From contig CATQGW010000001.1 of assembly GCA_958295515.1 (NCBI GenBank), forward strand, positions 777,522 through 841,521: DNA of 64,000 nucleotides, read 5' to 3'. Position 1 is the stretch's first letter, and every line of letters starts with the position of its first letter. The position numbers and the translations under genes were made by a program. This DNA is from an uncultured Dehalococcoidia bacterium (GTDB lineage Bacteria > Chloroflexota > Dehalococcoidia > Bin125). The notes beneath the pieces were generated by a model. The model saw nothing but the letters and a program-made list of their open reading frames with translations, did no database searches and had not been told where the DNA came from. This document shows, piece after piece, positions 1 through 32,784 of this stretch.

Positions 1-1557
1 GGGGGACTCGCGGCGCTCCTGGGTGATGGAGGCCGCCGCGCCGATTTTGCCCGCGACATGGCGGTTGATCGCGTTGATGTAGGCGCGCGCGCTGGCGACC
101 AGGATGTCCTGGTCGGCCGCGCGGCCGGTGTGGATCACGTCCTCGACGCGGATGCGGATGGTCACGTCGCCCTGGGCGTCGAGGCCCTCGGTGATCGACT
201 TGACGCTGTACTCCTCGAGGGCATCCTCGATGCCGATGATCGCGCGCAGCGTGCGGTAGATCGCGTCGACGGGACCGCTGCCCGTCTCGGAGCCCGAGCA
301 CTCCTCGCCGTCCGGCGAGCGGAGGGTGATCGATGCGCTGGGCGTTTCCGCGGTGCCGGTTGAGATTGAGATCGTGACCAGGTCCCAGGCGTTCTCGATC
401 TGGCCCATGCGGTCGAGCACGATCGCTTCGAGGTCGCGGTCGTCGACCACCGTCTTGGTGTCGGCGAGGGACTGAAAGCGCTCGAAGGCGGTGTTGAAGT
501 CGTCGCTCTCCAGCGCGTAGCCGAGGTCTTCGAGGCGCGAGCGGAAGCCGGCGCGTCCGGAGAGCTTGCTCAGCACGAACTGGCTGCCTTCCGTCCAGCC
601 GACCTCTTTGGGGTCCATGATCTCGTAGGTCTCGCGCAGCTTGACCACGCCGTCCTGGTGGATGCCGGACTGGTGGCGGAAGGCGTTCAGTCCGACGATG
701 GCCTTGTTGGGCTGCACGTGCATGCCGGCGAAGTCCTGCACCATGCGCGAGGCGGGGACGAGGAATTGCGGCTGCACGCCGATTTCCACGCCGAGGTGGT
801 CGGCGCGGGTGCGGATCGACATCACGGTTTCTTCCAGCGAGGCGTTGCCGGCGCGCTCGCCGAGGCCGTTGATGGTGCATTCCACCTGGCGCGCGCCGGC
901 GCGCACCGCGGCCAGGCTGTTGGCCGTGCTCAGCCCGAGGTCGTTGTGGCAGTGTACGGAGACGATCACGTTGTCTGCGCCGGGCACATCCTCGAGGATG
1001 CCGCGGATGAACGCTTCGAACTCGTCGGGAATGGCGTAGCCGACGGTGTCGGGGATGTTGATTGTGGTTGCGCCTGCCTCGATCACTTCGGCCAGCATGC
1101 GGCGCACGAAGTCGACATCGGAGCGCGTGGCGTCCATCGGGCTGAACTCGACGTCGTCGACGTGCTGCTTGGCCTGGGCGACCATCGCGCGGGCCTGTTG
1201 GAGCACCGATTCGCGGTCCTTGCGCAGCTGGTGGGCGATGTGGATGTCGCTGCTGGAGAGGAAGACGTGCAGGCGGGGTGCTTCGGCGTCGCGGATCGCG
1301 GCCCAGCCCTGCTCGACATCGTTGGGGACGGCGCGGCAGAGGGTGGCGATCTGGGTGCCGCGCACTTCGCGGGCGATCTGGTGGACGGCGTCGAAGTCGG
1401 CGGGGCTGGCGGCGGCGAAGCCGGCCTCGATGCAGTCCACGCCCATGCGTTCGAGCAGCTTGGCGATTTGCAGCTTTTCGTCGGCGGAGAAGGAGACGCC
1501 GGCGGCCTGCTCGCCGTCGCGCAGGGTGGTGTCGAAGATTCGGACTCGGTCAGCCAT
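1..1557 (-). CDS. leuA: 2-isopropylmalate synthase / citramalate synthase family (LeuA-like), 3' end truncated by window edge
   Basis: Reverse-complement translation from ATG at 1557 gives MADRVRIFDTTLRDGEQAAGVSFS...HCHNDLGL...; HMGL-like TIM barrel plus C-terminal LeuA dimerisation region; the + strand ORF 658..1749 is its antisense shadow. Confidence 0.85.
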   Translation of the reverse strand, partial: MADRVRIFDTTLRDGEQAAGVSFSADEKLQIAKLLERMGVDCIEAGFAAASPADFDAVHQIAREVRGTQIATLCRAVPNDVEQGWAAIRDAEAPRLHVFLSSSDIHIAHQLRKDRESVLQQARAMVAQAKQHVDDVEFSPMDATRSDVDFVRRMLAEVIEAGATTINIPDTVGYAIPDEFEAFIRGILEDVPGADNVIVSVHCHNDLGLSTANSLAAVRAGARQVECTINGLGERAGNASLEETVMSIRTRADHLGVEIGVQPQFLVPASRMVQDFAGMHVQPNKAIVGLNAFRHQSGIHQDGVVKLRETYEIMDPKEVGWTEGSQFVLSKLSGRAGFRSRLEDLGYALESDDFNTAFERFQSLADTKTVVDDRDLEAIVLDRMGQIENAWDLVTISISTGTAETPSASITLRSPDGEECSGSETGSGPVDAIYRTLRAIIGIEDALEEYSVKSITEGLDAQGDVTIRIRVEDVIHTGRAADQDILVASARAYINAINRHVAGKIGAAASITQERRESP

Positions 1558-1867
1558 GGTGGAGGTGCTCCAGAGTGGTGTGGGGTCTGGCGTGGGGGGA
1601 AGGTGGTCGGCGAGGCGTGGCCGCGTCGGACGGTCCGCTTCGCATCAGGGCAGGAGCAACCCGCGGGCAGCATCGGCCCGCGGCAGCATCCCCCTGGTGG
1701 TCGGTCGCGTCAGCATCATCGTTCGCAGTATACGCACATGCGCGGCTAGGCGGCGCGCCCCGACGAACACACCTGTCTCCCCAGCGGCTCAACCATCGCC
1801 TCGACAACAGGATAGAATCGCCCTGCGGAGCTTCTTGTGCTGGCCAACGAACGTCTTCGGGAGATCA

Positions 1868-2008
1868 CGACAGTTGGACATCCACTTCCGCACGAATCGG
1901 AGAGGGCAGCACGCCATCAAGCTCGGGCATCGGGAGCGCTTGATTGTGACCCTCGCAGACGACGGATCATTGACAATCCAAGAAGTGAGCTTGCGTCATT
2001 ATGAGTAG
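1868..2008 (+). pseudogene. higB-like toxin remnant with internal deletion (about 46 codons left)
   Basis: LDIHFRTNRRG...QHAIKLGHRERLIVTLADDGSLTIQEVSLRHYE aligns to the N- and C-terminal thirds of the intact HigB at 3398..3694 but lacks the middle; abuts higA-like gene. Confidence 0.55.
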
Positions 2009-3119
2009 CGCAAGCTTCCCCCAACTGCTGCGGAATCGCGCGATTCATCCGGGCCGAATCTTGGCGGATGAGCTTGAGGCGCGTTGCCTCTCGTCGGAAG
2101 ACCTGGCTCAACTCGTGCGACCGTCATCCGAACACATTGACCGTGTGCTGCGAGGTCGGGCGCGCATTAGTGGACGTTTCGCCGATGACCTGGAGCAGGC
2201 GCTTGACACCCCGTCGCACGTCTGGCGGCGCTTGCAGGCCGGATACGACGAGACTCTGGCGCGCCTGGCGGCTGAGCCCGACATGCGCCACGACATCGAG
2301 CTGCTGGGCAAGATTCCCTGGCGGGAGTTCGTCAAGCAGGGCTGGATCGCGGATCGCAGTACGGATGTTGAGCGGGTCGGCGAACTACGAACGCTCTACG
2401 CCGCGGACACGTTGAACGGCGCGATGCGCGACCAGCTCGCCGTGGCGTTCCGAATCACTGCGAAAACGAATGTCGATCCCTGGGCGCTCGCCGCATGGCT
2501 GCAACAGGGCGAGTGGCAAGTGATCGAGAGTCGACTGGCTGAGGGCAGCAAGCTCGCCCGCACCTTCAAGCCGTCGCTGTTCGCGGAAAACCTCCGCAGC
2601 ATTCGCGGGCTCATTGGCCGCGAGTCGTTCTGGCCTGAGATGCGCTCACTCTGCGCGTTTGCCGGCGTGCATCTGGAGTACGTACCCCACATTCGCAACT
2701 CCGGAGCGAATGGCCTCACACGCTGGCTTGATGACGACCGCCCGCTGATTCAGCTCAGCCTCTTGCGGAAGCGGGCGGACATCTTCTGGTTCAGCTTTTT
2801 TCACGAAGCGGCCCATGTCCTAAAGAAGGACCGGGACAAACTGTTCATCCATGGGAAAGAGCTCGGTCGCTCCAGCAGCGCTGAGCGGGCGGCCGACGAG
2901 TTTGCTGCGGACCTGTTGATTCCGCCGGAGGACTGGCGGGCGTTTGGCGAGGGCGGGGTCTTCACCAATGAGACGATCATCGAGTTTGCGCGCGACATCG
3001 GCGTCCACCCCGGCATCGTCGTTGGGCGGCTTCAGTATGAGAAGAACGTTCCGCAGAACCGCCACAACGAACTGCGCGTCTCCCTCGACCTCGACGCCTT
3101 CTCCACCGACCCTGTCTGA
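2001..3119 (+). CDS. HigA-type XRE HTH antitoxin fused to ImmA/IrrE (M78) zinc-peptidase-like domain, copy 1
   Basis: N-terminal HPGRILADELEARCLSSEDLAQLV... HigA HTH; C-terminal FHEAAHV HEXXH motif; 372 aa; paralog of 3695..4816. Confidence 0.75.
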   Translation: MSSASFPQLLRNRAIHPGRILADELEARCLSSEDLAQLVRPSSEHIDRVLRGRARISGRFADDLEQALDTPSHVWRRLQAGYDETLARLAAEPDMRHDIELLGKIPWREFVKQGWIADRSTDVERVGELRTLYAADTLNGAMRDQLAVAFRITAKTNVDPWALAAWLQQGEWQVIESRLAEGSKLARTFKPSLFAENLRSIRGLIGRESFWPEMRSLCAFAGVHLEYVPHIRNSGANGLTRWLDDDRPLIQLSLLRKRADIFWFSFFHEAAHVLKKDRDKLFIHGKELGRSSSAERAADEFAADLLIPPEDWRAFGEGGVFTNETIIEFARDIGVHPGIVVGRLQYEKNVPQNRHNELRVSLDLDAFSTDPV

Positions 3120-3131
3120 GCGGCTGGGCCG

Positions 3132-3259
3132 CGCAGGGTGGTGTCGAAGATTCGGACTCGGTCAGCCATGGTGGAGGTGCTCCAGAGTGGTGTGGGGTCT
3201 GGCGTGGGGGGAAGAGGGTCGGCGAGGCGTGGCCGCGTCGGACGGTCCGCCGCCGAGTT
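3132..3259. repeat. ~125 bp near-identical direct repeat copy B (copy A at 1519..1646) containing leuA start codon, first 13 codons and 5' leader
   Basis: gcgcagggtggtgtcgaagattcggactcggtcagccatggtggaggtgctccagagtggtgtggggtctggcgtggggggaag... present twice with about 2 mismatches. Confidence 0.9.
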
Positions 3260-3397
3260 GCCTGGCTGCTGTCGGTCTGTGCTCTCCAATGTGCTCCGTG
3301 ATTCAATGGATCATTGAAGAGATGTCTCCGAGATGCTATCGTGACTGTGGAACGCCCCCGATGTCAGCGCAAGTTCCCGACGTGAGGGAGATCTCCA

Positions 3398-3694
3398 TTG
3401 GACATCGAGTTTCGCAACCGGCGCCTTGAGCGGTTCTACTCGGTGAAGAGCGCCGCGCGAAAGCTGCCCGTTCCAGTTGTGGAGGCGTACGTTGACGCGA
3501 TCGACCTACTCAGGGCAGCGCGTGATCTCAACGCTCTGCGGGCAGTCAAAGGATTGCGTCTCGAACAACTTGAGGGATCGCGGAAGGGGCAGTATTCCAT
3601 CCGGCTCAACCGACAGTGGCGGTTGATTTTGAAGGAAGGCGACAGCAGCACGGTTGTGATCGTCTGGGACGTGAACAACCACTATCAGAAGTGA
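3398..3694 (+). CDS. higB: HigB toxin (plasmid-maintenance killer protein family, PF05015-like)
   Basis: MDIEFRNRRLERFY...LRLEQLEGSRKGQYSIRLNRQWRLILKEGD...VVIVWDVNNHYQK matches Proteus-type HigB; immediately upstream of higA with toxin-first order. Confidence 0.8.
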   Translation: MDIEFRNRRLERFYSVKSAARKLPVPVVEAYVDAIDLLRAARDLNALRAVKGLRLEQLEGSRKGQYSIRLNRQWRLILKEGDSSTVVIVWDVNNHYQK

Positions 3695-4816
3695 GTGAAC
3701 GCCATGACTCATCGACTAGCGGCACGGACGCACGGATACCGCGCGACGCACCCCGGCCGGATCTTGCGCCGCGAGCTTGAGGCGCGCGATATGACGCAAG
3801 CTGCTCTCGCCGCGCGAATGGGCCGCCCGACGCAGGTGATCAACCAGATCATCGGCGAGAAAAAGGCGGTCACCGCCGAGACTGCGCGCGGCCTGGAGCA
3901 TGTCTTGGGCATTCCTCGGCATGTCTGGATGAACCTCCAGTCGAACTACGCGCTCGCGCTTGACCGCCTTGCGGAGGAAGAGCGGCTGGAAGATGAGGAG
4001 CATGCACTGCTGGATGCGCTCGGCGCGGCCACGATCCGCGAAATGATTCGACAGGGCTGGATTGAGAAACGCGAGACGGCAGGGGCGCAGCTCTCGGAGC
4101 TGCTCTCGTTCTTCGGAGTGCAGACGCTCCACGGTCTGGAGCGCACGCCAAGCGCCGCCGCTTTCCGTGTGACGGCCGGCGCGAAGGTTGAACCCTGGCG
4201 GCTCGCGGCTTGGATGCGACGCGGTGAAATCATCGCGGACCAGACGGACCTTCCCGCATCTTTCAACTCCGACCGGTTCCGACGCCTGCTGCCCGACCTT
4301 CGCGGCGAAACGCGAAGCGAGAATCCCTGGCCGCAGCTTCGTGCGCGATGTGCGGCTGTGGGTCTCGCTGTGGTTGTGGTGCCGGCGCTGCCCAAGTCGG
4401 GTGCGAACGGCGTCGCCTATTGGCTTGGGCGCGACCGACCGGTGATCCAGCTCAGCTTGCGGAACAAGCGCGCCGACATCTTCTGGTTCAGCTTCTTCCA
4501 CGAGGCCGCGCATGTCCTGGATGGGTACCGCGCAGACGCGGCGATCAACCTCGAGCGTGTGCCGCGAGACGACCCTATGGAGCGGGCGGCGGATCAGTTT
4601 GCTGCGGACCTCTTGATTCCGCCGGAGGACTGGCGGGTGTTTGGCGAGGGCGGCGTCTTCACCAATGAGACGATCGTTGAGTTTGCGCGCGACATTGGGA
4701 TTCACCCGGGCATCGTCGTCGGGCGGCTTCAGTATGAGAAGAAAGTTCCGCAGAACCGCCATAACGAACTGCGCGTCTCCCTCGACCTCGACGCCTTCTC
4801 CACCGACCCGGTCTGA
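3695..4816 (+). CDS. higA: HigA-type XRE HTH antitoxin fused to ImmA/IrrE (M78) zinc-peptidase-like domain, copy 2
   Basis: HPGRILRRELEARDMTQAALAARMGRPTQVINQIIGEKKAVTAETARGLEHVLGIPRHVWMNLQSNYAL is a HigA HTH signature; FHEAAHV HEXXH motif; start abuts higB stop. Confidence 0.8.
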   Translation: MNAMTHRLAARTHGYRATHPGRILRRELEARDMTQAALAARMGRPTQVINQIIGEKKAVTAETARGLEHVLGIPRHVWMNLQSNYALALDRLAEEERLEDEEHALLDALGAATIREMIRQGWIEKRETAGAQLSELLSFFGVQTLHGLERTPSAAAFRVTAGAKVEPWRLAAWMRRGEIIADQTDLPASFNSDRFRRLLPDLRGETRSENPWPQLRARCAAVGLAVVVVPALPKSGANGVAYWLGRDRPVIQLSLRNKRADIFWFSFFHEAAHVLDGYRADAAINLERVPRDDPMERAADQFAADLLIPPEDWRVFGEGGVFTNETIVEFARDIGIHPGIVVGRLQYEKKVPQNRHNELRVSLDLDAFSTDPV

Positions 4817-4895
4817 GCGGCGACGTTATGCCACTTGGCGTGGCGCGATCCGCTGGCGATCCGCTAGCCTTGCGCTGAGCTCAGGAACTGGGATT

Positions 4896-7800
4896 ATGCA
4901 TAGGCGCACGATCGACATGGCTGTGAGCAGCGCCGCCGGGCGGTTGCTGCTGCGGCAATTGCGGGGGGGGGGGGGTGTAATGTCCCTCCCTGTCGGCGTG
5001 CTTCGGCCGACTGCGCTGCTGATCGCGTTGATCGGCGTGCTTGCGCTGGTCGGCGTGGCGCTGCGCTCGGAGGCCGTGGCGCAGACCAACAACGTGACCG
5101 TGGAGTTCACCCGCGTCGCCGTCGCTGAGCGCCTCGTGACCGATCGGTACAGCCAGACAGGTCCGTTCTCGCAGAACAACTACGGAATCATCCTGCGGCC
5201 CAACGACCTGACCATCAGCGGGGCAGCCCGAGTGCGGATCAGGTTCAGCGAGACGGTCAGCAGCTTCACGCTGGCGAACCTGACGGCAACCAACGCGACG
5301 CTCTCGAACCTGCAGGTGGAGACGGCCAACCGGCGTTGGACGTTCGACGTGACGCCGACGGCGGACGGCGCGGTCAGCATCAGCATCGCGGCCGGCGCAG
5401 TGAACGCCGCCGCCGATGCGACGCGCGGCAATGCGTCGGCGCAATTGAGCATGACCGCGGCGCTCGCCGCGCCCAAAGTGGTCTGGACCGACTTCACCTC
5501 GGCGACAACCCGGCTACAACGCACGGGGCCATATAGCGCCGGCACCCAGATTGACCTGAAGGTGATCTTCAGCGAGAACGTGACGGTTAGCGGCGTCCCG
5601 ACGGTCGGTCTGCACACGCCCAGCAAGACGCCGGGGTCGAAGACGTACAACGCGTCGTATCACAGCGGCAGCGGGACATCGGTGCTGCTCTTCCGCTACA
5701 CCGTGCCGTCCGGGCAGAGCTGGCTAGCCGGCCGCACCACGATCAATTCGTCGGCGATCAGCCTGCCGTCGAGCACCTCGATCGCCGACGCGTCGGGCAA
5801 CGCGGCGACGCTGACCCTGCCGCCGCGGGTGATCAAGGTGGAGCGGCACTTGCCCGCGCCCGCGCCCGGCGAACGCGCGCCGGCCGGGGTGGTCGGCGAC
5901 TCCCACGACTGGGTGTTCACCTTTAGCGAGCCGGTCACGGTGACGCAGGCGCCCGGCGCCGCAGCGCCGTTCTTCCTGGTCGGCTTTACCCTCCGGACCC
6001 CCATCAGCCCCACCCGCACCCGGGGAAACGCGCCCGCGAACTACCTGGAGGGCAGCGGCACGAACCAGCTCACCTTCCGTTACACGGTGCGAGCCGCCGA
6101 CGGTGTCGCTACCGATTCCAGCTTCGTCCCCGACAGCTATCCGTATATCCGGGTCCCCGACGGCTCAGGCGTCCGCAACGCGGCCGGGATTGACGTCCAC
6201 GGGCGAGTTCGCGAGGTCGTCAACCTCATCACCGCGCGCGAAGGGACACGGTTCGGGCGCTCACTCAGACTCTCGTTCTCGTCGATCCACGACGTCATTG
6301 TCCATCTGACCAGCAGCGATCCGGCGCGGGCGACGATCGAACCCAGTTCGTTCACGTTCTTGAGCAGCAACACCGACGCCGACCACTGGAGTACCCGGCA
6401 ACCCTTCATCGTCACGCTGCACCGCGACGATGATGAGGACGACAACGAAGTCACGATCTCCTACCGCTTCGAGAGCGATCTCACGATCATTGACGGCCGC
6501 ACCGGCACGTACTTCAAATTTCTCCTCCAGGAAGCCTTGCCCGGGGTGCCGACGGAGGTCCCCAGCGACACCCGGTCCGAAGGGACGCGGTTCACGATTC
6601 CATTCGCGCTGACGGAGTCGTTCGAGCAGGATGTGATCGTCCACCTGAGCAGCAGCCCTCCGGGGCGGATGACGTTCGAGCCCAGTTCGGTCAGGTTCCT
6701 GGGCTTCAACACCGACCCAGACCACTGGATGATCCCGCAGACCGTGACGGTTACGCTGCTCCCGGACAGCGATGCCGAAGACGACGAAGTCAGGATCCTC
6801 TACCGCTACGAGAGCGTTGACCCGTCCGTTCACGAGACCGCGGGAACGCTTACGACCTACACCGCCGCGGACAGCGCCAACGCGGAGTACGACGCGGCGA
6901 GTCTCCCCACGGACCTGCGGCTGGAGCTGGGCCTGGTGGAGGACTCCGACAATGTGGTGCCGCCCGGGGTGGAGCGGCGGGTTGCGGCGAAGCTGATCTA
7001 CAGCGGCGGCTACGTACCGCTGCAGGTCTCGGCGGACAGCTGGCTTCGGATCAGCGGCAGCGTGGAGTGGGAAGACCGGGATCGTCGGCGGCTGGACCTC
7101 GCGCGGCAGGAGACTCAGTACCTGGGCGACGCGCCGCCCTGCACGAGCCGCACGATTAACAACGTCGAGACCTGGAGCTGCGATGTGACGGTTGACGCGG
7201 CCCGCTTCGTGGTCGCGCCGGGCACGCCGGACGGAGCATTCACGATCTCCGGCAACATAGTCGTCAATGGTCGCGACTACCCCGTCGAGCTGGATGTGAC
7301 GGTGGGCACGGTCGCTGAGGTGGCCTCGGCGGAGCTGGGCTTCGCGACCGATATCGCGCCGGGCGACTCGACCGACACGCCGACCAACAACAACATCGCC
7401 GATGATCGTCCGTACCCGGACGCGATTGCGGTTGGGGAGAGCACGACGCTGCAGCTGGCGGTGCTCAACGAGCGGGGCACGGCCTCGCATACCGGCGAAA
7501 TCAGCTCGCTCGTTTTCACCACCACGGGCGGGACATTGAGTCTCGCCAACCCGGTGGGCGACTGCGTGGGCGGCGGCGGCAGCAGCTGCCAGGTGCCGGT
7601 CAACCTGCTGACCACCGACAACGCGGACGACATCCGGGTGACGCTCACGCATCCCGGGCTGGAGCAGCTGGGCGCGGGTGTGGTGCGGGCGCTCGTGGTG
7701 TCCAAAGACGGCGACACAGTCAACGCCGATCCGCTCACGGTGACCTTCCTCGGCCCCGCCGAGTCGATCGCGATCGCCGAGCCCGCCACGGCGGTGCTGA

Positions 7801-8762
7801 ACTACGACCCGCCCGCCCCAGACGGCGGCGGCGCAGATGTCCGCGATCTGCTGAAGCTGTCGGTTATCGGGTCCGATGCCAGCGGCCGTACGGTGCCGCT
7901 GACGGCGCCGTTCGGCAGAGTGATTGTCAGGGATCCCGACGGGCGGCTGGTCTGGAACGGCTCGAGCTACGCGGTGCAGAACGGGATGCGGATCGACTGG
8001 CCGCTGCGGGAGCGGGATGATGACGGGGCGCTCGTGGATGGCGACTCCAGCAAGAGCGGGGTTCAGCCGAAATATATCCGCGATGCGGACGGCAATCTGC
8101 AGGTGCAAGTTGATATTGAGGTGGATGAGGCGGCGCAGCTGACGAAGGGGGAGTACACGATCGAGCTGCGCGCCATCGGGGAGACGGCTGAGCAGACCTT
8201 CTCGGTCGGCGGCGAGCCGGCGGAGGTCGCGCTGGGCGAACCGACAGGCTCGACGGAGGACGGCGGGCGGCTGACCGTGACCGCGACGCTGACTGATGCG
8301 GACGGCAACCTGGTGGGGGAGGGGACGCCGGTGCGTTGGGAAGAGGGCAGCGTGGGGTCGCATGTGGTGTTGGTGCAGATCTCCGCTGAGGCGAGGACGA
8401 GCGGCGGCAGCGCGTCGGCGACGTATCTGGTGGTGGGGCGGGGAACGGCCTGGGTGCGGGCGAGTTCGGGGGAGGCGACGGACACGCGGGTGATGTTCAA
8501 CCTGGGCGCGCCGCCTGCGCCAGCTGCGCTGGCCAACCCCGCGGAGTCGCTCAGCAGTCATAGGCCGGGCGCGTTTGCGTCCTGGCTCGGCAGGGGGGCG
8601 ACGAGCGCTTCCGCGCTGCTGGCGGGGCTCGACGGGATTGATTCGATCTCCGTGTGGCGCAATGGCGCTTGGCTGCGCTATGAGGTGGTGGACGGCGCGG
8701 CGGCGGGCGGTGGGGTGGACTTTGAGGTGCGGCGGGGCGAGATCCTGCGTTTGGGCGGCTGA
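4896..8762 (+). CDS. giant secreted/surface repeat protein, paralog 1 (alternative start ATG 4979 immediately after G13 tract)
   Basis: From ATG 4896 the frame runs through a G13 tract (encoding RGGGGV) into MSLPVGVLRPTALLIALIGVLALVGVALRSEAVAQ signal peptide; internal ~100 aa duplicated domain (..HLTSSDPARATIEPSS.../..HLSSSPPGRMTFEPSS...); C-terminal region shared with 11032..14442 and 17972..21658. Confidence 0.7.
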   Translation: MHRRTIDMAVSSAAGRLLLRQLRGGGGVMSLPVGVLRPTALLIALIGVLALVGVALRSEAVAQTNNVTVEFTRVAVAERLVTDRYSQTGPFSQNNYGIILRPNDLTISGAARVRIRFSETVSSFTLANLTATNATLSNLQVETANRRWTFDVTPTADGAVSISIAAGAVNAAADATRGNASAQLSMTAALAAPKVVWTDFTSATTRLQRTGPYSAGTQIDLKVIFSENVTVSGVPTVGLHTPSKTPGSKTYNASYHSGSGTSVLLFRYTVPSGQSWLAGRTTINSSAISLPSSTSIADASGNAATLTLPPRVIKVERHLPAPAPGERAPAGVVGDSHDWVFTFSEPVTVTQAPGAAAPFFLVGFTLRTPISPTRTRGNAPANYLEGSGTNQLTFRYTVRAADGVATDSSFVPDSYPYIRVPDGSGVRNAAGIDVHGRVREVVNLITAREGTRFGRSLRLSFSSIHDVIVHLTSSDPARATIEPSSFTFLSSNTDADHWSTRQPFIVTLHRDDDEDDNEVTISYRFESDLTIIDGRTGTYFKFLLQEALPGVPTEVPSDTRSEGTRFTIPFALTESFEQDVIVHLSSSPPGRMTFEPSSVRFLGFNTDPDHWMIPQTVTVTLLPDSDAEDDEVRILYRYESVDPSVHETAGTLTTYTAADSANAEYDAASLPTDLRLELGLVEDSDNVVPPGVERRVAAKLIYSGGYVPLQVSADSWLRISGSVEWEDRDRRRLDLARQETQYLGDAPPCTSRTINNVETWSCDVTVDAARFVVAPGTPDGAFTISGNIVVNGRDYPVELDVTVGTVAEVASAELGFATDIAPGDSTDTPTNNNIADDRPYPDAIAVGESTTLQLAVLNERGTASHTGEISSLVFTTTGGTLSLANPVGDCVGGGGSSCQVPVNLLTTDNADDIRVTLTHPGLEQLGAGVVRALVVSKDGDTVNADPLTVTFLGPAESIAIAEPATAVLNYDPPAPDGGGADVRDLLKLSVIGSDASGRTVPLTAPFGRVIVRDPDGRLVWNGSSYAVQNGMRIDWPLRERDDDGALVDGDSSKSGVQPKYIRDADGNLQVQVDIEVDEAAQLTKGEYTIELRAIGETAEQTFSVGGEPAEVALGEPTGSTEDGGRLTVTATLTDADGNLVGEGTPVRWEEGSVGSHVVLVQISAEARTSGGSASATYLVVGRGTAWVRASSGEATDTRVMFNLGAPPAPAALANPAESLSSHRPGAFASWLGRGATSASALLAGLDGIDSISVWRNGAWLRYEVVDGAAAGGGVDFEVRRGEILRLGG
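4963..4975 (+). repeat. G13 homopolymeric tract at translation start of giant protein paralog 1
   Basis: 13 consecutive G counted directly (gcaattgc-G13-tgtaATG). Confidence 0.9.
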
Positions 8763-17861: not shown

Positions 17862-17956
17862 CCTTACGCTGGGCTCGGGAATTGGGACTATGCGTAGGGG
17901 CACGATGGACATGGCTGTGAGTAGGGCTGCCGGGCGGTTGCTGCTGCGGCAATTGC

Positions 17957-17969
17957 GGGGGGGGGGGGG
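17957..17969 (+). repeat. G13 homopolymeric tract at translation start of giant protein paralog 2
   Basis: 13 consecutive G (gcaattgc-G13-taATG); upstream conserved leader ORF from ATG 17890 is out of frame with the main ORF at this tract length. Confidence 0.9.
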
Positions 17970-17971
17970 TA

Positions 17972-20900
17972 ATGCGCCTCTGGCGGCGCGTGTTTCGGCC
18001 GACTGCGCTGCTGATTGCGTTGATCGGCGTGCTCGCGCTCGGCGGCGTGGCGCTGCGCTCGGAGGTTGCCGCGCAGACCAACGACGTGACCGTGGAGTTC
18101 ACCCGCGTCGCCCACATGAAGCGAAACCAGATCCATGGCTTCCTCCAAGGCACCACCACGCGTCCGAACGACCTGGCCATCAGCGGGGCAGTCCGAGTGC
18201 ACATCAGGTTCAGCGAGGAGGTCAGCGGCTTCACGCTGGCGAGCCTGACGGCGAGCAACGCGACGCTCTCGAACTTGCACATGCGGCAGACCAACTGGCG
18301 TTGGACGTTCAGCGTGACGCCGACGGCGGACGGCGCGGTCAGCATCAGCATCGCGGCGGGCGCGGTGCAGGCCGCCGCCGACGCGACGCGCGGGAATGCG
18401 TCGGGGCAATTGAGCATGACCGCCGCGCTCGGCGCGCCCAAAGTGATCTGGGCCGACCTCACCACCTCGGGGTCAACCTGGCAACGCCATAGGCAGCGGT
18501 ACAGCGCCGGCACCCGGATTGACCTGACGGTGATCTTCAGCGAGTACGTGACGGTCAGCGGCGTCCCGACGGTCGGTCTGCACACGACCAGCAAGCCGGC
18601 GCCCAAGGCGTACGATGTGCCGTTTGCCGCAAGCGACGGGTCGGTGCTGCTCTTCAGCTACACCGTGCCGGCCGGGCAGAACTGGTCCCGCGGCTGGACC
18701 ACGATCACTTCGTCGGCGATCAGCCTGCCGTCGAGCGCCTCGATCACCGACGCGGATGGCAACGCGGCGACGCTGACCCTGCCGCCGCGGGTGATCGAGG
18801 CCGAGCGGCTCTTGGCCATGCCCGCGCCCGGCGAACGCGGGCCGCAAGGCGTGGTCGGCGACTCCCACGACTGGACGATCACCTTTAGCGAGCCGGTCAC
18901 GGTGACTCAGGCGCCCGGCGCCGAAGCGCCGTGGATCGCGATCAGAGCCACCCTCCAGGACGGCAACTCGGGAACGGTGCGCGCGAACTACCTGGAAGGC
19001 AGCGGCACGGATACGCTCACCTTCCGTTACACGGTGCGCGCCGCCGACAACGTCGCTACCGATGCCAGCTATGGCTTCGACAGCGCACGGTATGTCCGCG
19101 TCCCCGACGGCGCAGGCGTCCGCAACGCGGCGGGGCTTGATGTCAGCGGGCGATTTGCCACTGCCGCCAACGTCGCCATCCAGCGCGAAGGGACGCAGTC
19201 CGTGCGCGGAGCCAGACTCTCGTTCTCGTCGGTCCACGACGTCACCTTCCACCTGACCAGCAGCGATCCGGACCGGCTGACGATCGAACCCAGTTCGCTC
19301 ACGTTCTTGAGCAGAAACACCGACGCCGACCACTGGAGGACCTGGCAGGCCGTCACCTACACGGCGCACAGTGACGATGATGAGGAAACCAACGAAGTCA
19401 CGGTCTCCTACCGCTTCGAGAGCGATTACACGGCCATCGACGGCCTCACCGGCAGGTACCTCCTGTTTCGCATCCAGGAAGCCGCAGTCGGGGCGCCGAC
19501 GGAGGTCCCGAGCGGCACCCGGTCCGAAGGGACGCGGTTCACGATTCCATTCGCGCTGACGGAGCCGTTGGAGCAGGATGTGATCGTCCACCTGAGCAGC
19601 AGCGATCCGGCGCGGATGACGTTCGAGCCCAGCGCGGTCAGGTTCCTGGGTACCAACACCGACCCCGACCACTGGATGATCCCGCAGACCGTGACCGTTA
19701 CGCTGCTCCCCGACAGCGATGGCGAAGACGACGAAGTCATGGTTCTCTACCGCTACGAGAGCGTTGACCCGCCCGTTCACGGCACCGAGGGAACGCTCGC
19801 GACATACACCGCCGCGGACAGCGCCAACGCGGACTACGACGCGGCGAGTCTCCCGGCGGACCTGCGGCTGGAGCTGGGGCTGGTCGAGGATTCCGACCAG
19901 ATTGTTCCGCCCGGGGGCGAGCGGAAGGTTGCGGTGAAGCTGATCTACAGCGGCGGCTACGTACCGCTGCAGGTCTCGGCGGACAGCTGGCTACGGATCA
20001 GCGGCAGCGTGGAGTGGGAGGACCGAGATCGGCGGCGGCTCGGTCTCGCGCGGCAGGAGACTCAGTACCTGGGCAGCGCGCCGCCCTGCCAGAGCAGCAC
20101 GATCGACACAGTCGAGACCTGGAGCTGCGATGTGCTGATCGACGCCGCGCGCTTCGTGGTGCCGCCGGGCACGCCCGACGGAGCATTCACGATCTCCGGC
20201 AACATAGTCGTCAATGGTCGCGACTACCCCGGCGAGCTGGAGGTGACGGTGGGCACGGTCGATGAGGTCGCCTCGGCCGAGCTGGACTTTGCGACCGATA
20301 CCGCTGATGATCGTCCGTATCCCGACGCGATTGCGGTTGGTGAGAGCACGACGCTGCAGTTGGCGGTGCTGAACGAGCACGACAAGGCCTCGCATACCGG
20401 CGAAATCAGCTCGCTCGTGTTCACCACCACGGGCGGGGCATTGAGTCTCGCCCACCCGGTGGGCGAGTGCGTGGGCGGGGGCGGCAGCAGCTGCCAGGTG
20501 CCGGTGGATCTGCTGACGACCGACAACACGGACCAGGTGCGGGTGACGCTCACGCATCCCGGGCTGGAGCAGCTGGGCGCGGGTATCGTGCGTGCGCTCG
20601 TGGTGTCCAAAGACGGCGACACCATCAACGCCGATCCGCTCACGGTGACCTTCCTCGGCCCCGCCGAGTCGATCATGATTGGCGAACCTGCCACGGCAGT
20701 ACTTAACTACGACCCGCCGGAGCGGGACGGCGGCGGCGAAGATGTCCGCGATCTGCTGAAGCTGTCGGTCATCGGGTCCGATGACAGCGGCCGCACGGTG
20801 CCGCTGACGGCGCCGTTCGGCAGAGTGATCGTTAGAGCCCCGGATGGCATGGTTGTCTGGAGCGGCTCGAGCTATGAGGTGCAGAACGGGATGCGGATCG

Positions 20901-25968: not shown

Positions 25969-25983
25969 GGGGGGGGGGGGGGG
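25969..25983 (-). repeat. C15 (plus-strand G15) homopolymeric tract between signal peptide and mature domain of lipoprotein gene
   Basis: 15 consecutive G counted on plus strand. Confidence 0.9.
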
Positions 25984-32551: not shown

Positions 32552-32643
32552 GGAGAGGTGTCCGAGTGGCCGAAGGAGCCGATCTCGAAAATCGGTAGGT
32601 GCGGTGACGTGCCTCGTGGGTTCGAATCCCACCCTCTCCGCCA
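32552..32643 (+). tRNA. tRNA-Ser (anticodon CGA)
   Basis: GGAGAGG/CCTCTCC acceptor stem, anticodon loop cTCGAaa, long variable arm, GTTCGAATCC T-loop, encoded CCA. Confidence 0.85.
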
Positions 32644-32694
32644 GTCATCCCGTCCTTCCCGCCGCCGCGCGGGAAGTGGACCGCGCACACGCCC

Positions 32695-32784
32695 GGAGAG
32701 GTGCTGGAGTGGCCGATCAGGCACGCCTGGAAAGCGTGTAGGGGCGCAAGTCCCTCGTGGGTTCGAATCCCACCCTCTCCGCCA
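32695..32784 (+). tRNA. tRNA-Ser (anticodon GGA)
   Basis: Same acceptor stem; anticodon loop cTGGAaa; long variable arm; encoded CCA. Confidence 0.85.

Follow-up and report, generated by a model that had tools for sequence, protein, structure and literature searches.

In HigB-HigA type II toxin-antitoxin (TA) modules, known from Proteus vulgaris Rts1 and from Pseudomonas aeruginosa (HigBA), the toxin gene comes first, HigB is RelE-like, and canonical HigA has about 100 aa. Fusions of Xre and COG2856 domains were predicted by Makarova et al. (2009), as that study is cited in PMC6929052. A HigB-like gene followed by an Xre-HTH/peptidase fusion is also found in PD-lambda-2 of E. coli, in which the Xre-peptidase is the toxic part, the HigB-like protein rescues, and defence depends on PD-lambda-2C (Vassallo et al. 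2022, PMC9519451). In the T6SS effector-immunity arrays of V. cholerae, the toxic partner is displaced and the cognate protective gene retained, and homology-facilitated illegitimate recombination was proposed as the mechanism behind the orphan immunity arrays (Kirchberger et al. 2017, PMC5361080).

The window, a stretch of 64,000 nucleotides from an uncultured Dehalococcoidia bacterium, carries two HigB/HigA units in tandem beside leuA, the first with a type-1 and the second with a type-2 allele, and a copy of the leuA start lies between them. We compared this locus with related species and with six contigs of the same species (L081 to L086), all from one metagenome assembly, ERZ19489113. The features are:

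1..1557, minus strand: leuA (2-isopropylmalate synthase; Pfam), ATG at 1557-1555, running off the left end of the window
1518..1638, minus strand: repeat copy A, leuA codons 1-13 plus 1 nt and 81 nt of species-specific 5'UTR with the ribosome-binding region (repeat search, alignment)
1639..1735, minus strand: conserved leuA control element, beside copy A only (DNA comparison with relatives)
1874..2008, plus strand: truncated higB1, type-1 HigB-like, 44 aa left (alignment to full-length HigB)
2001..3119, plus strand: higA1, type-1 Xre-HTH/M78 (ImmA/IrrE) peptidase fusion of 372 aa, HEAAH motif intact (Pfam, PADLOC)
2883..3124, plus strand: segment T1, the 3'-terminal ~240 nt of higA1 with the 5 nt after it (repeat search, alignment)
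3120..3129, no strand: novel junction, 9 nt normally 3' of the higA stop (GCGGCTGGG) joined to leuA codon 14 (comparison with L084/L085, the unit-2 downstream sequence and leuA)
3130..3250, minus strand: repeat copy B, a leuA' stub (ATG 3169-3167; 13 leuA codons) plus 81 nt of 5'UTR (repeat search, ORF list, alignment)
3251..3397, plus strand: type-2 cassette promoter region (palindrome search, strain and species comparison)
3398..3694, plus strand: higB2, intact type-2 HigB-like gene, 98 aa (Pfam)
3704..4816, plus strand: higA2, type-2 Xre-HTH/M78 peptidase fusion, 370 aa (Pfam, PADLOC)
4580..4821, plus strand: segment T2, the 3'-terminal ~240 nt of higA2 with the 5 nt after it, partner of T1 (repeat search, alignment)

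As in HigBA, the toxin-like gene comes first at this locus, and HigB2 matches the Pfam HigB-like_toxin family (PF05015; 56.9 bits, cut-off 27); it is 72% identical to its counterpart in the related species L002. HigA2 exceeds the Pfam cut-offs for HTH_3 and Peptidase_M78 as well as that of TIGR02607 (54.1 bits, cut-off 47.7), and its N-terminus matches solved HigA structures (6jpi, 7csv, 4mcx). HigA1 passes the Peptidase_M78 cut-off (23.5 bits against 22) and departs from HigBA in its HTH scores, which lie below the curated cut-offs (HTH_31; 35.4 bits for TIGR02607). The gene spacing is also HigBA-like, with higB2 abutting higA2 (3694/3704) and the end of truncated higB1 (2008) overlapping the start of higA1 (2001). 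Truncated HigB1 has no Pfam family match, yet it aligns to both ends of HigB. The type-2 promoter region, like that of HigBA, contains a palindrome: TTCAATG-GAT-CATTGAA at 3302-3318 is perfect and unique in the window (0.03 expected by chance), is kept in L082 and L083, and occurs with 1-2 changes in the type-2 species L002 and L006, which makes it a candidate HigA2 operator. Unlike canonical HigA, the HigA proteins of the window have about 370 aa, with an extension of about 270 aa that ends in an M78 (ImmA/IrrE) HEXXH peptidase domain.

In this fusion, and in its position after a HigB-like gene, the locus resembles PD-lambda-2, and both HigA proteins match the PADLOC PD-Lambda-2_B profile nearly end to end (HigA1, E 2.7e-28; HigA2, E 4.3e-36, residues 24-347 on profile positions 67-378 of 402). 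It differs in that the HigB proteins of the locus do not match the component A model, PADLOC giving no family at E<=10 for HigB2, L003 HigB or full-length HigB1, and in that no third gene (component C, P4-antitoxin-like) is present at the locus. Downstream of higA2 there are 160 nt of intergenic DNA, followed by a Big_12 surface-protein gene.

Repeat search and pairwise alignment delimit a direct repeat of 121 nt, 1518-1638 against 3130-3250, at an offset of 1612; the sole mismatches are two adjacent ones, GT at 1603-1604 in copy A and AG at 3215-3216 in copy B. Its length and identity are far beyond chance. The repeat reported in the earlier note is thus real, and its placement at 1519..1646 and 3132..3259 was broadly right, with the distal end set about 8 nt too far and an offset of 1613 instead of 1612. 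Of its 121 nt, 40 are coding (13 leuA codons and one further nucleotide) and 81 lie in the proximal 5'UTR. Within the first 8 kb, all other long repeats can be assigned to the same duplication (D1, D4, D5) or to the interior of the downstream surface-protein gene (D2). Copy A is the functional start of leuA, whose translation contains HMGL-like (3e-89), HCS_D2 and LeuA_dimer domains in Pfam and has 93% amino acid identity to Dehalococcoidia MAGs. In copy B the reading frame departs from leuA after MADRVRIFDTTLR (ORF 3032..3289, minus strand), as the earlier note had stated, and its reading of copy B as a dead leuA 5' fragment is supported. The two copies do bracket the truncated-higB/higA1 module, ORF 1874-2008 being the truncated higB.

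The leuA control element, which lies outside the repeat and is merely its neighbour, comprises a TATACT box at 1732-1727, a 24-codon upstream ORF (MMLTRPTTRGMLPRADAARGLLLP*) at 1719-1645, and a hairpin (CCGCGGGC/GCCCGCGG) with arms at 1661-1668 and 1676-1683. It has 83-89% DNA identity to L001-L004; the upstream ORF and the first hairpin are conserved across about 45 Dehalococcoidia species, the hairpin being retained across relatives with G-U changes and one compensatory change (limited covariation), and the fold z-score of the element is 0.31. A short upstream ORF overlapping a conserved hairpin upstream of leuA recalls the enterobacterial leuL/leu leader attenuators, as does the Leu-Leu-Leu end of the upstream ORF in the window clade (Val-Leu in most relatives) and, in most relatives, a second GC-rich hairpin that then follows with a T-rich run. 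However, the element has no Rfam match, no canonical terminator was found in the window, most species here have only 1 or 2 Leu/Val codons, and in most relatives 6-7 nt separate TATACT from the ATG of the upstream ORF, which thus looks leaderless.

The promoter, the upstream ORF and the hairpin of this element are all missing from copy B and from unit 2. Copy B is a promoter-less scar with no predicted function, instructive as a piece of recombination history, otherwise ordinary, well explained and of modest interest. The leuA regulatory leader is not part of what was repeated, so annotation should place no additional leuA start or promoter at copy B.

All 24 species-level relatives with the locus have one higB-higA cassette divergent from leuA and one leuA start, and none has a second leuA fragment. 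The divergent leuA/higBA arrangement is thus ancestral for the clade. The earlier note had proposed that the repeat places a TA operator beside the leuA leader; this neighbourhood is not new, and the duplicated piece lacks the conserved promoter, upstream ORF and hairpin at 1639-1735. The cassette core is hypervariable between genomes of the clade, and the cores of HigA1 and HigA2 are only 44% identical. HigA1 is much closer to the orthologues of L003 and L004 (76-78% over the core), and HigA2 to those of L001, L002 and L006 (68-76%). Over their C-terminal 80 aa, in contrast, the two proteins share 94% identity, whereas the identity to any orthologue is only about 60%. By this comparison the two cassettes belong to different allele lineages and did not diverge in place, contrary to the view that two higA copies had diverged in their middles after duplication. 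Copy B would then be the stub at the left end of a conspecific type-2 unit.

Three of the six conspecific contigs, L081, L082 and L083 (2.8-3.0 Mb, two labelled circular), share the junction of the window; their divergence from the window along the locus is 1-7%, and they are also distinct from one another. L082 and L083 have the complete tandem structure, with a copy B of 123 nt, and L081 carries the same junction together with a 472-bp deletion that removes most of copy B and higB2. The other three are single-cassette contigs without copy B, L084 and L085 with a full-length higB1 and L086 with a truncated one. The divergence of leuA in single-cassette contigs is at most about 2% (L084/L085 are 98.4-98.6% identical over window positions 1-1896), and L086 is 97.9% identical over positions 1-3122. 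The arrangement is therefore polymorphic within the species. Set against the full-length gene of L084, L085, L003 and L004, higB1 has lost 54 internal codons in frame, and this lesion is common to the window, L081-L083 and L086. ERZ19489113 thus holds four stages: an intact single cassette, a single cassette with a truncated toxin gene, the heteroallelic tandem, and the tandem with a further deletion. With polymorphism inside one species and absence from all species-level relatives, the arrangement is evolutionarily young, which supports the recent event of the earlier note.

The joint reads TGA-GCGGCTGGG followed by TCGCGCAGG, and its parents are GCGGCTGGG-CGGC... and, in leuA, ...CGCCG-TCGCGCAGG, so that the two parental sequences share at most 1 nt of microhomology there. 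At the other end, a tandem insertion has its homologous anchor in the T segments of about 240 nt: T1 and T2 are 93% identical in the window, the sister strains show 93-97% identity between them, with 7-17 differences over 236 nt, and the unit-2 downstream sequence is collinear with the single haplotypes. The T copies fall into no T1 versus T2 grouping. Likewise, in the repeat (R) no substitution separates A copies from B copies: copy A of L086 is identical to copy B of the window, and the same T variant occurs in copy A of L082 and copy B of L083. Such polymorphism, shared between the copies of R and between the last 240 nt of the two higA genes, points to gene conversion, and the exchange between repeat copies raised in the earlier note is likely.

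We propose, with a probability of about 0.75, that a conspecific type-2 unit was joined in tandem behind the resident type-1 cassette and that copy B is a leftover piece of leuA, which upholds the reading of the repeat as a scar of duplication or insertion. Since copy B derives from leuA, the incoming cassette would come from the homologous locus of a conspecific donor; the 81-nt UTR part of the repeat, which has no blastn match among 50 related species, would mark the donor as conspecific. At its left end the added unit would carry donor leuA sequence, running from codon 14 through the ATG and 81 nt into the 5'UTR, attached by illegitimate recombination to the ninth nucleotide after the higA1 stop, and the right side would have been resolved by homology within T. 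The leuA promoter, upstream ORF and hairpin of unit 2 would have been lost later, after the join. Other later steps would be the in-frame deletion in higB1, which would leave higA1 an orphan, the deletion of most of copy B and higB2 in one strain, and continuing exchange of sequence between the duplicated flanks R and T. The higB1 deletion may also stand in another order relative to the tandem event, and L086 may be either a precursor of the tandem or a derivative of it by T1/T2 recombination. A single type-2 haplotype of the window species was not encountered; outside it, the type-2 HigA closest in sequence is 73% identical, and a metagenome scan for the species-specific leader gave no match. 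The type-2 donor is therefore hypothetical. As to the route, a single step of import seems slightly the more probable, whether by homology-facilitated illegitimate recombination or by Campbell-type integration of a 1.7-kb fragment that had circularised, the other route being a plain tandem duplication after which the core of one unit was replaced by homologous recombination. A further point against the tandem joining is the control element, which a leuA-adjacent donor must have had and unit 2 lacks; either an additional deletion, of about 200 bp, or another illegitimate joint, at 3250/3251, is required to account for this.

A plain tandem duplication of the leuA'-higB-higA unit within the genome, the model implicit in the earlier note, would have the middles diverge in place and the ends stay alike by conversion or chance. 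The units are indeed of similar length (1612 and 1697 bp) and collinear in gene order, and their ends are nearly identical. However, cores that diverged in place should be equidistant from any outgroup, whereas each is far closer to orthologues elsewhere than to the other; moreover, across the HigA cores the divergence among strains of the species is only 1-3%, which leaves too little time for 56% protein divergence in place, and we consider this origin highly improbable. Little more can be said for a site-specific mobile element integrated into the 5' end of leuA, with the 121-nt repeats as attL and attR. Direct repeats around a 1.6-kb module, one of which restores the 5' end of a housekeeping gene, would suit it, as would the variation of the locus between strains; such restoration is common among integrative elements. 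But higB and higA are the only ORFs with family matches in unit 2 and in the interval that the repeats enclose, no integrase, recombinase or transposase is present, and the cassette position is syntenic in 24 species that lack the repeats. The extra DNA relative to L084/L085 is unit 2, flanked by T and not by R copies; L084-L086 retain the module between the repeats (higA1) and lack unit 2, where an empty site would be a single repeat copy from which the element is cleanly missing; and the distal end of copy B adjoins a region without the conserved leuA element. With no recombinase, non-identical units and one repeat end inside leuA coding sequence, the integrative or tandem-amplifying cassette of the earlier note is very improbable.

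The repeat could also be a strain chimera or a false expansion, given that the source is evidently a MAG-type assembly and that co-existing strains have different haplotypes at the locus. This artefact, which the earlier note had asked to be checked, is highly improbable: the identical junction recurs in the three other large contigs despite their distance from the window, L081 keeps it in spite of its derived deletion, and at 3.3 kb the entire structure would fit within a typical long read. By these comparisons the repeat is not an assembly artefact. Copy B might instead be functional and couple TA expression to leucine biosynthesis. Its RNA might be a decoy or an antisense partner for the leuA 5'UTR, or copy B might provide the start of an ORF of 45 aa (ATG 3169) that runs antisense to the 3' end of higA1. 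It retains the leuA ribosome-binding region and ATG, and its identity is kept at 97.5-99% in three strains, whereas the type-2 promoter region beside it has only 92-94%. However, this conservation is explained equally well by gene conversion from copy A. Copy B has no promoter, upstream ORF or hairpin of its own; most of it is deleted in L081, and L084-L086 do without it, with no visible compensation. Openness is all that speaks for the 45-aa ORF, and a function of copy B is very improbable.

Under the preferred tandem joining of conspecific units, the stub reveals the donor locus, an origin that is rarely demonstrable, and the locus shows how, in an uncultured lineage, TA-like modules turn over at population level in one fixed place on the chromosome. 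The addition of a conspecific toxin/protector pair at a fixed locus, with the resident toxic partner lost, the protector retained and short homologous stubs at the joints, resembles the T6SS orphan immunity arrays and the analogous Rhs/CDI orphan modules. In contrast to these, the window carries a type II TA-like module and no secreted effector/immunity pair, its stub is a fragment of a neighbouring housekeeping gene and not of a toxin, and only two units are stacked. By analogy, a protective role of the orphan HigA1 may be conjectured. We suggest tentatively, and regard as rather unlikely, that the leuA-linked HigB/Xre-M78 locus serves in defence or incompatibility, is related to PD-lambda-2 and is hypervariable between strains, conspecific alleles being stacked in it by illegitimate recombination and the displaced Xre-peptidase being kept as an orphan protector. 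If so, HigB would be toxic in this two-gene branch, the opposite of what was measured for PD-lambda-2. Natural loss or damage of higB is seen three times (truncated higB1, the higB2 deletion of L081 and a fusion in L084), and every higA ORF is intact. This pattern, which bears on the question of the toxic partner raised by the PD-lambda-2 results, fits the classical polarity, with HigB predicted to be toxic and HigA neutralising, better than that of PD-lambda-2.

A repeat search of the window returned a pair of direct copies, at 1518-1638 (copy A) and 3130-3250 (copy B), each 121 nt long and 98% identical; we denote this repeat R. Pairwise alignment showed that the only mismatches are GT at 1603-1604 versus AG at 3215-3216, and that similarity drops sharply beyond both ends. 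The near-perfect repeat of the leuA start and leader described in the earlier note is thus borne out, with its distal end placed about 8 nt too far and the description otherwise correct. The leuA ATG lies at 1557-1555, and R is therefore made up of 13 codons of leuA plus one base, together with 81 nt of the adjacent 5'UTR. The reading frame of copy B departs from leuA after MADRVRIFDTTLR, in agreement with its description as a dead leuA 5' fragment. As detailed below, R is real and can be well explained as the scar of a recombination event at a toxin-antitoxin locus that is hypervariable.

Features of the leuA/higBA locus in the window
1557-1555, minus strand: ATG of leuA; HMGL-like, HCS_D2 and LeuA_dimer domains in the translation
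1874-2008: truncated higB1, a 44-codon ORF between the R copies; both ends of HigB align, and 54 internal codons are missing in frame
2001-3119: higA1, between the R copies
147-nt stretch following copy B: type-2 promoter region
3398-3694: higB2, intact (Pfam HigB-like_toxin, 56.9 bits)
3704-4816: higA2, after higB2

HigA1 and HigA2 are each ~370 aa long, and in both the N-terminal Xre HTH is like solved HigA antitoxins by structure match and the C-terminal domain is an M78 (ImmA/IrrE) peptidase with the HEAAH motif. HigA2 scores above the TIGR02607 cut-off and HigA1 below it. More than 1,600 HigA homologues of similar length were found, the named ones being HigA-family antitoxins; exact-sequence look-ups of HigA1, HigA2 (with two alternative starts) and HigB2 gave no match. 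About 80 nt upstream of higB2, at 3302-3318, lies a perfect 7-3-7 palindrome, TTCAATGGATCATTGAA (TTCAATG-GAT-CATTGAA), which occurs once in the 64-kb window, is identical in the conspecific contigs L082 and L083 and is kept, bar 1-2 changes, in L002 and L006, which are type-2 species; it is a candidate operator for HigA2. A search of the type-1 promoter (1736-1880) gave no palindrome of this kind.

A LeuA-based scan assigned the window to Dehalococcoidia, with the best species-level LeuA matches 93% identical. In 24 related species a single higB-higA cassette occupies the same position, divergent from and upstream of leuA, and none of the 24 carries a second leuA start. On this shared position the leuA/higBA neighbourhood is ancestral rather than a product of the tandem event, and the proposal that a duplication had placed a toxin-antitoxin operator beside the leuA leader does not hold. 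The core of the cassette is hypervariable between genomes: the species L002 and L003 have flanks of 87-90% DNA identity, and from mid-higA to the leuA control element they share no detectable DNA similarity. When the last 80 aa are set aside, the HigA1 core is 76-78% identical to L003 and L004 and the HigA2 core 68-76% identical to L001, L002 and L006, whereas identity between the two cores is only 44%. The two cassettes are thus different alleles lying side by side, which we call type-1 and type-2, and these identities contradict the earlier reading of two higA copies that had diverged in their middles. The last 80 aa of HigA1 and HigA2 are 94% identical to each other and only ~60% identical to any orthologue. 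The idea that this terminal segment is a "species backbone" common to all alleles was rejected, as type-1 and type-2 C-termini elsewhere differ by ~35-40%. The near-identity is specific to the species of the window, by shared origin or gene conversion.

Through a 97%-identical HigA1 cluster we reached six conspecific contigs of one metagenome assembly (ERZ19489113), which diverge from the window by at most ~2% over leuA and adjacent DNA.

Haplotypes of the conspecific contigs
L082, L083: tandem structure of the window; copy B 123 nt
L081: same junction between higA1 and the leuA' stub (copy B); without window positions 3162-3633 (rest of copy B, promoter and most of higB2)
L084, L085: single type-1 cassette, higB1 full-length
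L086: single cassette, higB1 truncated

It follows from these haplotypes that the repeat is not an assembly artefact, the tandem structure recurring in L082 and L083 and the same junction in L081. Tandem and single cassettes segregate within the species, so that the arrangement is a polymorphism and not an old fixed feature. In L084 (5941-7347) the full-length higB1 has lost its stop through a 1-nt change close to its end, giving an in-frame HigB1-HigA1 fusion called as a 448-aa protein; the toxin-antitoxin fusion may be real, or it may reflect a sequencing error, the contig being 21.8 kb long and of low coverage.

After the higA stop the single haplotypes read GCGGCTG(G/A)GCGGC..., and the tandem haplotypes continue from the higA1 stop into GCGGCTGGG and on into TCGCGCAGGGTGG, which is leuA read backwards from codon 14. 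Because the two parental sequences overlap by at most one base there, this left end of the second unit is an illegitimate joint. A 7-nt microhomology (CGCGCAG) at the junction was considered and rejected, since comparison with L084 shows the string to be wholly leuA-derived, with an overlap of <=1 nt. Relative to L084 and L085 the extra DNA consists of unit 2, namely the leuA' stub, type-2 promoter, higB2 and higA2, and is bounded by two T segments (T1 and T2, the last ~240 nt of higA1 and higA2 plus 5 nt), an arrangement consistent with homologous resolution in T or with Campbell-type integration through T. For the UTR part of R (81 nt), blastn found no match in the other species compared, and copy B therefore derives from a genome of the same species. 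Its right end (3250/3251) adjoins type-2 promoter DNA, with a palindrome there that is common to type-2 species. A scan of JGI metagenomes with a 27-nt piece of the species-specific leader returned no contig.

We propose that a conspecific carrying the other allele was the source, and that a 1.7-kb unit of its homologous locus would have been inserted through one illegitimate joint, with homologous exchange at the other. Alternatively, the locus would have undergone plain tandem duplication, and the core of one unit would then have been replaced; we put insertion against this alternative at about 55:45. Unit 2 would later have lost the control element, and the deletions in higB1 and in L081 would also be later events. 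The R scar adds a further example of processes already known: illegitimate and homologous recombination, gene conversion, and toxin loss with the partner kept.

No substitution in R separates A copies from B copies: the AG variant of copy B in the window is the state of the sole, working copy in L086, and L082 copy A shares a G-to-T variant with L083 copy B. A clean split between T1 and T2 was likewise sought and not found, as T sequences do not group by position. The window T2 is 2 nt from the single T of L084 and 16 nt from T2 of L081. The window T1 (2883-3124) is an outlier, with 15-20 differences from every other T and flanks 97-99% identical to other strains; ~15 of its substitutions are absent from all other T1 and T2 copies of the species, which suggests a recombination patch from an unsampled allele. 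These R and T patterns show that the duplicated flanks have probably undergone gene conversion or recombination between strains, the former having been raised as an alternative in the earlier note.

[quoted passage not shown] Both HigA proteins match the PADLOC model PD-Lambda-2_B over almost the full length; for the HigB proteins PADLOC gave no hit even at E<=10. PD-lambda-2 is a three-gene anti-phage system of E. coli comprising a HigB-like protein, an Xre-peptidase and a third gene; the Xre-peptidase alone is toxic and is rescued by the HigB-like protein, and defence also requires the third gene (PMC9519451). Because the window cassettes, unlike PD-lambda-2, lack the third gene and their HigB matches no PADLOC model, they are relatives of that system rather than members. 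Natural mutations have struck higB three times and all higA ORFs stay open, a pattern that, as indirect evidence, fits the classical polarity, with HigB toxic, better than the PD-lambda-2 polarity. These natural higB knock-outs in a PD-lambda-2-like module are one of the two most useful by-products of the analysis.

The other is a conserved upstream ORF and hairpin beside copy A. The DNA directly distal to this copy (1639-1735, minus strand) holds an unannotated element with conservation across about 45 species of Dehalococcoidia, located 95-130 nt upstream of leuA in L001-L045, L048 and L050. It comprises a TATACT box and a short upstream ORF of about 21-24 codons with Val/Leu codons at its end, starting 6-7 nt past the box in most relatives (the first ATG in the window, at 1719, is 7 nt past) and encoding MMLTRPTTRGMLPRADAARGLLLP-stop in the window and MKQCVLGGAEPRAVARGVLGA-stop in most relatives. 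Inside the ORF is an invariant 8-bp hairpin, CCGCGGGC/GCCCGCGG, with in-frame loop-length changes, a few G-U changes and one compensatory change; most species also have a second GC hairpin and a T-rich tail. A scan of 1-6000 against Rfam (E<=1) found no leader or riboswitch family, promoter and terminator consensus scans of 1450-3750 gave no match, and the single-sequence fold of the leuA leader was not better than shuffles (z = 0.31). The element is the probable leuA promoter and leader-peptide control region, and looks like a leader-peptide attenuator. R begins only 6 nt past the stop codon that ends the upstream ORF, and the regulatory leader of leuA is not part of it; there is no indication that R has a function of its own. 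Copy B is promoter-less and leader-less because the element is absent from unit 2.

Downstream of the cassettes, a Big_12 surface-protein gene (4979-8762) shows ~80-97% DNA identity among conspecific strains versus 98-99% for leuA, with strain-dependent lengths and a second paralogue in L085 and L086. Its divergence is far above that of leuA, which gives the flank of leuA the look of an island that varies by strain. G homopolymers occur at 4963-4975 (13 nt), 17957-17969 (13 nt) and 25969-25983 (15 nt), the first two preceding the ATG of large Big_12-type secreted proteins by a few bases, within a repeated upstream segment of ~100 nt (4880-4980 ~ 17880-17975). The tract at 4963-4975 has 13 G in the window and 14 in L083 and L084, and L081 and L082 have no G run >=7 there; such tracts may be contingency loci subject to phase variation, or noise from homopolymer sequencing. 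Further along the window, a pair of tRNA-Ser genes with anticodons CGA and GGA lies 52 nt apart on the plus strand (32552-32784).
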